From a phage, in the sequence record PZ386969.1: a stretch of DNA of 64,000 nucleotides. The stretch is one strand, 5' to 3'. A program made the translations under genes and the position numbers. Positions 53,688-56,617 of this stretch are shown here, piece by piece (within the stretch, counting starts at the first letter, position 1; each line of letters begins with the position of its first letter). Under the pieces are notes generated by a model. That model was given only the letters and a program-made list of their open reading frames with translations, ran no database searches and was not told where the DNA came from.

Positions 53688-54494
53688 ATGAATTTACCAT
53701 CATTGCCCAGAACAGAAAAGACATATAAAAGCGACTTTTGGCCTACTGTGATCAAATATCGCGCCTTTACTGCGGGGCAACAAACTTTATTACTTCAGGT
53801 GTCAGATCCGCAAACGCCGATTGAAGAACGCGCGGCCATGATGGAGAGTCTCTTTAGCGAGTGTGTAAATGCAGGCGCACCTTTCAGTAAACTGCCAATC
53901 GGCGTTGTTGAGGAAGTGTTCATCCGCATGCGCATGATCTCCATCGGTGAATTGATGAAGATTCGTTATAAGTGCAATAATCAGATTGAAGAAACGATCG
54001 ATCTGGGAGATGGTCAAGAAAAGCACCAGATGGTTCCCTGTGAGCAGGAACTGACTCTACCTATCCCGTTGAACAACGTCAAATGCATTGCTCAGGACGG
54101 CTTCCGGGAGACGTTTGACCTGCCAGGTGGATATCACCTCAAGATGCGCCAACCTTCCTTCTCGGACGCTACGGCACTGTCTGATGCTGCAAGCGTTGAG
54201 ATGATGCTGGCCACCTTTATCGACTGTCTGTACGATGATGACGGTCAGGTGTGGAAGGTTGAGAATCCTGAAGAAATCGGAATCACTCCGGAAGAGGCTA
54301 CTGAGCGCCGCCGTGTGAAAGAAGCGTTTGTTGAGTGGGTGAAGGATAACATCGAATCAGATGTTATTGACAGCATTACGAAGAACTTCTTCCATAAAAT
54401 ACCGCGCATCCACTACAAGAGTTCGATCAAGTGTCCGAAATGTGGTAAGGAGCACAAAATCGAATTCAATAGTATTAATGAAATTTTCATTTAA
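53688..54494 (+). CDS. Hypothetical protein with C-terminal zinc ribbon (possibly baseplate-associated)
   Basis: ATG 53688 with GGAG RBS; TTATAATTA upstream; CPKCG motif near C-terminus. Confidence 0.5.
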   Translation: MNLPSLPRTEKTYKSDFWPTVIKYRAFTAGQQTLLLQVSDPQTPIEERAAMMESLFSECVNAGAPFSKLPIGVVEEVFIRMRMISIGELMKIRYKCNNQIEETIDLGDGQEKHQMVPCEQELTLPIPLNNVKCIAQDGFRETFDLPGGYHLKMRQPSFSDATALSDAASVEMMLATFIDCLYDDDGQVWKVENPEEIGITPEEATERRRVKEAFVEWVKDNIESDVIDSITKNFFHKIPRIHYKSSIKCPKCGKEHKIEFNSINEIFI

Positions 54495-54643
54495 TGTTTG
54501 AAACTGATTTATTATCCTACTTCGTGATGTGTGATGAATTGAAGTTACACGGCTATAGCATATTTGAAATCAACGAGTCGATGCCATGGCATCTTGACTT
54601 GTTAACCGAAGCCCTCAAGGTCAGGTTGTCTAAGAAACAGTAA
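54494..54643 (+). CDS. Small ORF (49 aa, not in track)
   Basis: ATG overlapping the previous stop (TAATG); followed directly by a strong terminator. Confidence 0.3.
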   Translation: MFETDLLSYFVMCDELKLHGYSIFEINESMPWHLDLLTEALKVRLSKKQ

Positions 54644-54666
54644 TCCCGCTTCGGCGGGATTTTTAT
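54644..54666 (+). terminator. Rho-independent terminator
   Basis: Stem TCCCGC/GCGGGA loop TTCG followed by TTTTTATT. Confidence 0.7.
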
Positions 54667-54964
54667 TGGCTTAACTGTAAAATCGGTTAACACGCGCTCT
54701 TTTTACCTGAAATTGCTATAATGGGCTTGTTCCCGAGTCATTTGTTGGTGTTTGTCTGTTTTGAATCAGATTGTCAGTAAAATACCATTTTTCAAGGAGT
54801 GTTCTGGGGTGTACAGTTATTGCCTCGCCCTTATGCCTCCATGGCATTGGAATGGTGCTGCCCGCATAGGGCGGTTTGATGAGCGAAGCGAATAGGATCG
54901 AATAAAACAAATAAAATGAACGGAAGCAGAGCTTCCTATAGTATATAAGGCAAAATCAGCTGCG

Positions 54965-54972
54965 CATAAATA
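54965..54972 (+). promoter_or_regulatory. Late-promoter-like CATAAATA upstream of the hub gene
   Basis: 7 of 8 match to TATAAATA, 35 nt upstream of ATG 55007. Confidence 0.3.
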
Positions 54973-55006
54973 CCTTCAAATCCTTGTTTGACAACCGGAA
55001 CTCAAT

Positions 55007-56617
55007 ATGTTAGACAATATGAGATGGTTTTACGGCACCGTTGAAGATGTCAACGATCCAGACCAAAACGGGCGCGTCGCCGTCCGCATCTATGGCGTAC
55101 ACACCGACGATCCCGTCCTCCTGCCTACAGACAAACTCCCGTGGGCGAAGGTACTGATGCCTGCTTCTAACGCCTCCTCTGCTGGTTTAGGTTGGTCTCC
55201 AACGGGTATCATTCCTGGTACTGAGGTTATGGGGTTCGCCCTTGACGAAGCATACCAGAATTTACGCATCACCTGGACTTGGACTGGTTCAAGTCCTACT
55301 GATGGCGCCGACACAAACCCACTGGCTCTCGGGCAGGTCGTTCAATCTGTAGAACGTCAGGCGTACAACGCTGTCACTGACGTTCCTGTGAAACAAGAAG
55401 ACGAACCACAACCAGATCCACAACCACCTGTTGGTGGGTATGATCCAGAGAAGTGGATGACAATCGCTCGTGGCGAATTAGGTATCAAGGAGTATGCCGG
55501 AAAGTTCAACAACAACCCGCGCATTATAGAATATCACAAGACAACCTCCCTTGGTGCTTCTGAAGATGAAGTGTCGTGGTGTGCGGCGTTCGTGGGTTGG
55601 GTTATGATACAGGCTGGATACACGTCTACACGCTCCGCTCTTGCCCGATCTTACCTTACATGGGGTACTGCACTGTCAGCACCACAATATGGCGCTATCG
55701 TAGTCTTCCGGCGTGGTAACAACCCCACATTTGGACACGTAGCGTTTGTGCAGAAGTTCGATGCAAACTATGTCTGGTGTATTGGTGGCAACCAATCCGA
55801 TTCAGTGAAGGTCAGTCGTTTCAGACGTTCTTCGGTCTTGGGATATCGTTGGCCTGGTCCTGCTAACACAGCCACAGCCGCGCCTGCGCAGCAGAATGGT
55901 AAATGGTCAGAACCTATCCCAGATCGTACCCCAAAGGAACAACCGACTCCGGCTCCTACTGGGCGAGTACAGGATATTGACAACACTGGAGAAACCATGG
56001 TTCCGGCTGCGGGTGGATCTAAATACCCGTACAATAACGTCATGGTGTCCCGAGCTGGGCATATTATGGAAGTGGACGACACCCCTGGTGGTGAACGTCT
56101 TCACTGGATGCATAAGTCTGGGTCTTACAAGCAAATGTTGCCGGATGGTGATGTGGTCAACAAGTCCGTCAAAGACCACTATGACCTGACGATGTTCAAC
56201 AAGCGTTATTATGTCGGCGGGGACCACAACCTGACGGTCAAAGGAACTGAAGTTCAGCGCAAGACAGGTGAGGTCTATCATTTGCATTCCAACAATTACT
56301 CCAACGTGGTTGCGGGCACAGCGCTGATGAAATTCAGTGACCTAGCGGAAATGCAAGCGCAGAATATTCTGCGCATTATCTGCGAGACTCTGGAGGTCGG
56401 TGGGACATTGAAGGTTCCTAAGATTCTAACGACTGAGATAATCGCTGACAAACTGACTGTCGCTCAGACGATCAATGGTAACATCATATATGCCGAAGGT
56501 GCTGGTCGCGCTTCTTCTCTGTCAGGTGCAACCCCTGCATCCCCTACGGGTCCGGGTGAGATTGACATCAAGGCAGAATTAAAAGACAATGGTGGTAATT
56601 TCGGCACCAAAGAGTAA
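55007..56617 (+). CDS. Baseplate hub / cell-puncturing protein (T4 gp5-like) with CHAP/NlpC-P60-like domain
   Basis: gp5-type N-terminal OB region; central Cys...His peptidase-like pair (SWCAAFVGW ... FGHVAFV); beta-helix-like C-terminus. Confidence 0.7.
   Translation: MLDNMRWFYGTVEDVNDPDQNGRVAVRIYGVHTDDPVLLPTDKLPWAKVLMPASNASSAGLGWSPTGIIPGTEVMGFALDEAYQNLRITWTWTGSSPTDGADTNPLALGQVVQSVERQAYNAVTDVPVKQEDEPQPDPQPPVGGYDPEKWMTIARGELGIKEYAGKFNNNPRIIEYHKTTSLGASEDEVSWCAAFVGWVMIQAGYTSTRSALARSYLTWGTALSAPQYGAIVVFRRGNNPTFGHVAFVQKFDANYVWCIGGNQSDSVKVSRFRRSSVLGYRWPGPANTATAAPAQQNGKWSEPIPDRTPKEQPTPAPTGRVQDIDNTGETMVPAAGGSKYPYNNVMVSRAGHIMEVDDTPGGERLHWMHKSGSYKQMLPDGDVVNKSVKDHYDLTMFNKRYYVGGDHNLTVKGTEVQRKTGEVYHLHSNNYSNVVAGTALMKFSDLAEMQAQNILRIICETLEVGGTLKVPKILTTEIIADKLTVAQTINGNIIYAEGAGRASSLSGATPASPTGPGEIDIKAELKDNGGNFGTKE

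Follow-up and report, generated by a model that had tools for sequence, protein, structure and literature searches.

A conserved, covarying RNA element upstream of the baseplate hub gene of Ackermannviridae phages: a candidate small RNA gene with paralogs

Large lytic myoviruses carry short structured non-coding RNAs such as T4 RNA C and D, and phage small RNAs of this kind are conserved within a family and have no known role. The put RNA of HK022 is a folded RNA of ~70 nt comprising two stem-loops and present in several copies per genome; it begins at or close to the transcription start and is followed by a terminator-like hairpin and the genes beyond it. In the T4 oriF/oriG transcripts and ColE1 RNA II, a promoter is followed by an RNA that runs into an A/T-rich stretch, again with several dispersed copies, and no conserved fold is known to be needed by the T4 origin RNAs. 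Two further systems are comparable at the level of a single hairpin. These are domain 2 of the hammerhead ribozyme (UGA-stem II-GAA), which has tandem sheared G·A pairs by a short G-C stem, and the REP elements of bacteria, which are multi-copy, intergenic and species-specific in sequence.

The locus described here lies in the gap upstream of a baseplate hub gene, within a window of 64,000 nt (the whole stretch of phage DNA analysed, record PZ386969.1), and resembles each of these systems in part. Like T4 RNA C and D, it would encode a short structured non-coding RNA of a large lytic myovirus, conserved in its family; however, it shows no sequence or Rfam relationship to them, does not lie in a tRNA cluster and has three modular paralogs, each in front of a baseplate or replication gene. 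Like put, it is predicted to form a folded RNA at or near the transcription start, in several copies per genome and upstream of a terminator-like hairpin and further genes. It differs from put in being built of a pseudoknot and a G·A hairpin with no sequence similarity, and in that the genes downstream have promoter-like sequences of their own. As in the origin transcripts, the predicted promoter is followed by RNA that would enter an A/T-rich stretch, the copies are dispersed and one of them sits at the GC-skew minimum, but here the fold is conserved. The likeness to hammerhead domain 2 resides in the module UGA-GC-loop-GC-GAA, and one relative of the element even reads CUGAUGAGCGAAGCGAA; the conserved CUGANGA ... 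GAAA core and the NUH cleavage site with three stems are not matched. A longer form of the G·A hairpin, UUGU-GA-GC-GUNA-GC-GA-ACAA, resembles REP elements in being multi-copy, intergenic and without a tie to any gene family, whereas its apex is identical across phyla and phages and falls outside Rfam.

Ackermannviridae of the ViI-, CBA120- and LIMEstone-like types are widely used and sequenced as candidates for biocontrol and therapy, and in every record that we inspected this gap is unannotated or has been given a dubious ORF. The element appears to represent a family of structured RNAs that is not annotated and corresponds to no Rfam model, and a literature search that included sequence strings found no description of it. 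As a conserved family with a pseudoknot, such an RNA would add a concrete new regulator to a T4-like developmental programme, its three copies preceding the genes for the central spike, a wedge component and the sliding clamp.

Position and conservation of the gene-free gap

The source phage belongs to the Aglimvirinae group of the Ackermannviridae, and the region is 98-99% identical to Escherichia phages AV101 and YX22. The initial annotation had singled out a long non-coding stretch upstream of the hub gene, and this stretch is real. No conserved ORF was found between 54643 and 55007. The gene-free gap of 363 nt (54644-55006) separates the stop of a 49-aa gene (54643) from the ATG of the hub gene (55007), and in the 99%-identical YX22 annotation no intergenic gap within the part covered by the window is longer. 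The only gene annotated within the gap in relatives' records is a dubious minus-strand ORF of ChubbyThor, and the paper on the LIMEstone1 genome places only a terminator and a late promoter there.

The downstream neighbour is the gp5-like baseplate hub and tail lysozyme gene (55007-56617, plus strand; phrog_430, E 1.8e-154). On the left, the 49-aa gene (54494-54643, plus strand; phrog_9633, E 2.9e-39) overlaps the stop of a gp26-like hub gene and has tblastn matches in 283 phage records, as far as Vibrio Ackermannviridae. It is a real, family-wide gene that lies outside the RNA and forms the left boundary of the gap. The strong terminator reported at this boundary was also found: the scan placed an intrinsic terminator of the gp26/49-aa operon at 54642-54661 on the plus strand, with an 8-bp stem, a TTCG loop and a T-run (AATCCCGC-TTCG-GCGGGATT plus TTTTATT), and the LIMEstone1 record annotates a terminator at the same spot. 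Its stem shows compensatory changes between genera in the alignment.

Annotation of these upstream genes varies among records. The 49-aa ORF (ATGTTTGAA..., at TAATG) is absent from several of them (Vi01, 0507-KN2-1 and CBA120-type annotations), and in the PP35 record the matching locus is annotated as a baseplate assembly chaperone protein. The mechanical ORF of the gp26-like gene begins at GTG 53574, and the same long form is annotated in ChubbyThor; in most relatives the annotated start is the ATG that corresponds to 53688 (268 aa). With the GTG start, the gene would overlap its divergent upstream neighbour.

The comparison with related phages that had been proposed for this region found it conserved in about 270 records. 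Searched alone, the gap gave matches to 272 phage records, all of Ackermannviridae type, with 93% identity to Limestonevirus, 72-74% over 286 nt to Kuttervirus and ~70% to Taipeivirus. No match to the element was found in 5,426 E. coli genomes. Identity is unevenly distributed along the gap. Between genera it is 0.3-0.6 at 54738-54786 and 0.8-0.87 at 54797-54885, where it is as high as in the neighbouring gene; further on, in the A/T-rich stretch and around the late promoter, it drops again. The strongest constraint is thus on a core at 54797-54885, and neither on the TATAAT nor on the late promoter. This peak bears on the simplest explanation of the gap, an ordinary regulatory spacer in which promoters, terminators and protein-binding sites of the flanking genes act at the DNA level and any helices are incidental. 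Promoter-like and terminator-like motifs are indeed present, and their scan counts alone are not above those of shuffles; however, the conservation peak lies away from these motifs.

In a distant Vibrio relative (Vibrio phage 1.255.O), the syntenic gap is without the RNA element. That gap (L058:1378-1574) instead contains two near-identical hairpins, GGGATGC-NNN-GCATCCC, inverted around ~100 nt of extremely A/T-rich sequence.

A folded plus-strand core and its paralogs

The conserved core (54830-54900, plus strand) can be folded into three hairpin units and a pseudoknot. HP1 (54833-54847, AUGCC-UCCAU-GGCAU) pairs 54833-54837 with 54843-54847; its loop bases CCAU (54839-54842) pair with AUGG (54852-54855) to form the pseudoknot; HP3 pairs 54857-54863 with 54869-54875; and the G·A module (54879-54893) consists of A-U, U-A, G·A, A·G, G-C and C-G pairs closed by a GAA loop. 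This structure was read by hand and then tested on 18 distinct sequences, nine c1 orthologs (c1 being the copy in this gap) and nine sequences of a second copy in the genome, c2. In these 18 sequences, 99.7% of cells in the core helices form standard pairs, and 7 of the 19 pairs have changed on both sides, one of them in the pseudoknot. The covariation score was reached by none of 500 shuffles, and in controls with the partners slid by 1-3 columns only 24-47% of cells pair. A large share of these compensatory changes distinguishes the two paralogs, or whole genera, from each other, which leaves few independent events, roughly 6-8. Conservation of the gap and its compensatory base changes go well beyond chance, and helices held by compensatory changes beyond the controls argue that the core is a structured non-coding RNA. 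The several short hairpins noted in the initial annotation are present, and several of them covary.

For the pseudoknot, one of the four pairs varies: the A-U pair becomes C-G in Taipeivirus, where CCCU faces AGGG in both c1 and c2 (6 of the 18 sequences). A loop that pairs with a downstream single strand, with support from covariation, points to an H-type pseudoknot. A U·G pair is retained in 16 of 18 sequences, and G·U alternates with A-U at another position (columns 30-45 and 28-47 of the alignment). These persistent pairs would be C·A mismatches on the opposite strand, and the functional strand is therefore the plus strand. RNAalifold independently found HP1, HP3 and a further hairpin at 54922-54936. 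The folding energy of the single sequence is only modestly better than that of shuffles (z = -1.9), and the case for structure therefore rests on the comparative evidence. The unpaired bases GCCUCC and UGGAAUGG of the core are invariant, which suggests a binding surface.

Several other structures were considered and discarded. A long-range pairing of 54729-54800 with the A/U-rich linker is predicted for the window alone and, by eye, is not kept in other genera. An alternative RNAalifold stem, UCGC/GCGA, is absent from c2 and c3 (the third copy) and broken in one Taipeivirus sequence. The total count of a general G·A hairpin pattern in the genome is not above shuffles, and the pattern was rejected as a signal. 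Reading CUGAUGAGCGAAGCGAA as a hammerhead ribozyme also failed: its core is not conserved, with CUGAUGA found only in the CAU_YEP3 lineage, UUGAUGA, GUUACGA or UUCACGA elsewhere, and GAA changed to GAG; no cleavage site can be drawn; and the bases after GAA have no partner upstream of HP3 with which they could form stem III. The proposed covariance-model search for known families, run with Rfam 15, matched no family. Permissive cmscan runs (E up to 10 for c1 and 5 for c2 and c3) gave no match inside the core, including to the hammerhead, and the only c1 matches lean on the upstream terminator and are far below threshold. ARAGORN found no tRNA or tmRNA gene in the whole window.

The element is one of three paralogs in the genome, a point beyond the initial annotation. 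By blastn, c1, c2 and c3 lie at 44.2, 134.7 and 90.7 kb of the 155-kb YX22 genome, with c2 and c3 outside the window. Copy c2 is found in a divergent gap of 365 nt that precedes a gp6-like baseplate wedge gene (phrog_219), and c3 in a gap of 361 nt in front of the gp45 sliding-clamp gene. R1, a covariance model built on the core, scored 89.8 bits (E 4.8e-22) at window positions 54830-54900; in YX22 it gave 76.7 bits for c2, a full copy, and 20.5 bits for c3, a partial copy in which only the G·A module matches. R1 found no further match in the window or the YX22 genome, and neither blastn nor a pattern search nor the covariance model revealed a second copy inside the window. In IMG/VR, a pattern scan usually returned two matches per genome on contigs of 150-160 kb; the two shorter exceptions were a contig of 37.9 kb, matched by chance, and a 9.8-kb fragment with the c1 sequence of Limestonevirus.

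The modules of the element are distributed differently among copies and genera. Copies c2 and c3 have in common a 5' hairpin with the same G·A motif, GUUGU-GA-GY-GUUA-RC-GA-ACAAC, with changes from U-A to C-G and from U-A to U·G. Conservation of c3 extends from the Aglimvirinae as far as Kuttervirus, Taipeivirus and Miltonvirus. Upstream of gp5, the phages of Serratia (Miltonvirus) and Erwinia (Nezavisimistyvirus) retain the promoter box described below and the G·A hairpins, with the pseudoknot domain replaced; the RNA family is therefore modular. HP3 occurs in two variants, GCUGCCYGCAUARGGCGGU and ACUGCCUGUCAAGGCGGU; c1 and c2 carry the same variant in some lineages and different ones in others (L028, L034, L043 and others), a distribution that suggests recombination or gene conversion between the c1 and c2 copies.

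These results weigh further against an ordinary regulatory spacer. Protein-binding DNA would not be expected to show compensatory changes, covariation of a pseudoknot pair or G·U pairs that fit one strand only, and a second full copy with different flanks has the same fold. We consider such a spacer very improbable.

We also considered whether the gap encodes a micro-protein. Two short frames are open in several genera, one on the plus strand (MPPWHWNG..., 20 aa, from 54833) and one on the minus strand (MPWRHKGE..., 43 aa), and ChubbyThor annotates the latter as gp110. The residues shared between genera are only those encoded by invariant nucleotides, and the remainder shifts frame through indels of 1-2 nt located in the junctions and in the loops of HP3 and of the G·A module. 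No Shine-Dalgarno sequence was found 5' of the plus-strand ATG (54833), and the c2 paralog has lost this ATG through compensatory changes in the HP1 stem while keeping the fold. Expression of either frame as a protein is hence extremely unlikely, and this pattern of substitutions and indels shows the region of the RNA element to be non-coding.

Candidate promoters, probable 3' end and proposed mode of action

Two promoter-like sequences precede the core. P1, an extended -10-like promoter (TGCTATAAT, 54714-54722, plus strand), contains the TATAAT to which attention had been drawn at 54716-54721; the motif is present, one base further on, at 54717-54722 after a TG at 54714-54715. It is TATAAY in all genera, with the last T changed to C in Limestonevirus, Kuttervirus and some Taipeivirus, and the activity of P1 is uncertain because this critical position is C in several genera. 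No convincing conserved structure was found between P1 and P2.

P2 is a promoter-like box at 54779-54817 on the plus strand, composed of an A-tract, CTTTTCA in the -35 region, a 17-nt spacer and the -10-like hexamer TACAGT (54812-54817). The same arrangement of an A-tract, CTTTTCTA-like bases, a spacer of 16-17 nt and TAnnnT is found in all three paralogs, with TATCCT as the hexamer in c2 and TATTAT in c3. The T, the A and the final T of the hexamer are fixed in every genus and paralog, and the middle bases vary. In Erwinia phage phiEa2809 a perfect TATAAT stands 16 nt after the box, and Serratia phage 3M has TATGGT. The -35 region (TTTTCA/TTTCTA) is weak, and the site is absent from the list of a generic promoter scan. 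In the YX22 genome, boxes of the P2 type are essentially confined to c1, c2 and c3, which led us to reject the box as a general class of phage promoter. The promoter of the RNA is most likely P2 rather than the TATAAT of P1, and transcription from it is predicted to start at ~54822-54824, just 5' of the core.

Downstream of the core, an A/U-rich linker (54893-54921, plus strand) is poorly conserved and varies in length and sequence between genera. It leads to a conserved hairpin predicted by RNAalifold, GGAAGC-AGA-GCTTCC (54922-54936, plus strand), which is followed by a -10-like TATAGT (54937-54942). Its pair 127-136 is A-U in 8 and U-A in 4 of the 12 sequences aligned by RNAalifold. The tail of the hairpin, UAUAGUAUAU, is a mixture of U and A and not a proper U-tract, and the scan calls a terminator here on the minus strand, not on the plus strand. 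The hairpin is likely the 3' end or a leaky terminator of the RNA; lacking a U-tract in its tail, it may allow the RNA to read through into the hub gene.

The late-promoter-like sequence noted at 54965 is also in place. CATAAATA (54965-54972, plus strand) matches the T4-type late -10 element TATAAATA at 7 of 8 positions, its ATAAATA is invariant across genera, and the LIMEstone1 record has a putative late promoter at the homologous spot. In the paralog c2 the corresponding sequence is CTAAATATCTTCAA. An extended late-promoter motif, TAAATAYCTTCAA, was considered as a repeated motif of the window and rejected, as it occurs at a single site. This T4-type site would serve the hub gene and lies downstream of the RNA element, and late hub mRNA would therefore lack the element. 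The order is shared by c1, c2 and c3: the element, a terminator-like hairpin, and then a promoter-like sequence belonging to the next gene.

Taken together, we favour, with modest confidence, the interpretation that the gap contains an independent structured non-coding RNA gene of ~120 nt, a unit of its own in the same direction as the hub gene. The suggestion in the initial annotation that the gap might encode a small RNA and not simply the hub promoter thus gains support from the covarying plus-strand helices, the pseudoknot, the separate promoter-like box and the covarying 3' hairpin. Transcription would begin at ~54822 from P2, with P1, ~100 nt further upstream, as a second candidate promoter. 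In the predicted transcript, a compact hairpin with a pseudoknot would be followed by a second hairpin and by a short one flanked by tandem G·A mismatches, and the A/U-rich linker together with the hairpin at 54922-54936 probably marks its 3' end. We infer that this RNA, whose promoter and boundaries are themselves sequence-based predictions, acts as a free molecule whose invariant unpaired bases and G·A hairpin bind a protein or some other partner. An independent small RNA is favoured because the element has its own promoter box and 3' hairpin, lies upstream of the neighbours' promoters, keeps unpaired bases invariant and shares modules with its paralogs. A counterpoint is that all three copies are directly upstream of a gene in the same orientation, an arrangement that would suit a cis-acting leader equally well.

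In such a leader, transcripts from P1 or P2 would run into the hub gene (gp6 and gp45 at the other copies) and the folded 5' element would control them, for example through polymerase read-through of the hairpin as in HK022 put, stabilisation of the 5' end or sensing of a factor. Beyond the position of the three copies, the terminator-like hairpin between element and gene fits this scheme, the poor U-tract of the c1 hairpin makes read-through plausible, and the structured core begins at the predicted transcription start, as put does. However, all three genes are preceded, downstream of the element, by a promoter-like sequence of their own: gp5 by CATAAATA, gp6 by CTAAATA and gp45 by a conserved TATAAG/TATAAT. 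Moreover, there is no sequence or Rfam similarity to a known leader or antiterminator, and baseplate genes are late and should need no early leader. We regard a cis-acting leader as rather unlikely.

The dispersal of the copies, at 44.2, 90.7 and 134.7 kb of a 155-kb genome, also brings to mind a replication origin or primer-RNA unit, in which a promoter-driven folded RNA would hybridise in the A/T-rich stretch and prime DNA synthesis, as at T4 oriF/oriG or with ColE1 RNA II. An A/T-rich tract follows the core in all copies, and T4 oriE lies at gene 5. In YX22, c2 is located at the minimum of cumulative GC skew and at the main switch between leftward and rightward genes; however, GC skew in such phages follows gene orientation, which confounds the minimum, and c1 and c3 are away from the skew extremes. 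The A/T-rich linker is the least conserved part of the element, and the conserved pseudoknot and G·U pairs favour a function of folded RNA over a simple R-loop. We therefore judge an origin or primer function to be quite improbable, less so than a mere spacer, and retain the independent small RNA as the preferred reading.

Occurrence of the G·A hairpin outside the Ackermannviridae

Exact copies of TTGTGAGYGTNARCGAACAA, the 20-nt apex of the c2/c3 hairpin, are present in 96 stretches (L062-L157) that belong to many phyla of bacteria and archaea; this apparent invariance is partly built in, as the search pattern fixed most of the 20 positions. The hairpin is often multi-copy within a genome and sometimes arranged in tandem arrays, and its flanks differ by lineage and remain complementary. 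The sites are intergenic, with no fixed neighbouring gene family among 138 flanking ORFs, and no Rfam model matches the bacterial loci.

One speculative account, which we hold to be doubtful, is that the phage RNAs are built on an undescribed, near-universal hairpin (tandem G·A loop, G-C clamp and short loop) and, should this hairpin bind a universal machine or have a biophysical role intrinsic to it, would serve as decoys or recruiters of that machine; alternatively, they would be primer or origin RNAs at three sites of the genome. If this were true, the hairpin would represent a new class of RNA or single-stranded DNA signal common to the domains of life, and its link to distant bacteria and archaea would point to a general nucleic-acid signal missed by curation.

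Individual occurrences differ in their surroundings. On a viral IMG/VR contig that is apparently unrelated (3300033074_000227, 42 kb; L049:1200-1362), a consensus sigma-70 promoter (TTGACA, 17 nt, TATACT) is followed after 3 nt by the identical 22-nt hairpin, GTTGTGAGCGTTAGCGAACAAC (L049:1236-1257), and then by a run of TAGTT/AAGCTTAG-type repeats. In Acidimicrobiales, the TTGTGAGYGTNARCGAACAA hairpin is followed by UGAGCGAAGCGAA, the exact string found at 54880-54892 of the window. Some Acidimicrobiales and Omnitrophota carry the hairpin in perfect tandem arrays (L073:25-186, with a 71-nt period; L134 and L147), which are not CRISPR arrays because they have no unique spacers. In two CPR bacteria, a member of the Parcubacteria and one of the Saccharibacteria (L110:471-490 and L111:1049-1068), the 16S rRNA gene itself contains the hairpin, immediately 5' of the conserved GGAGGAAGG in the helix 40 region, and in L110 a group II intron fragment lies ~500 nt downstream of it.
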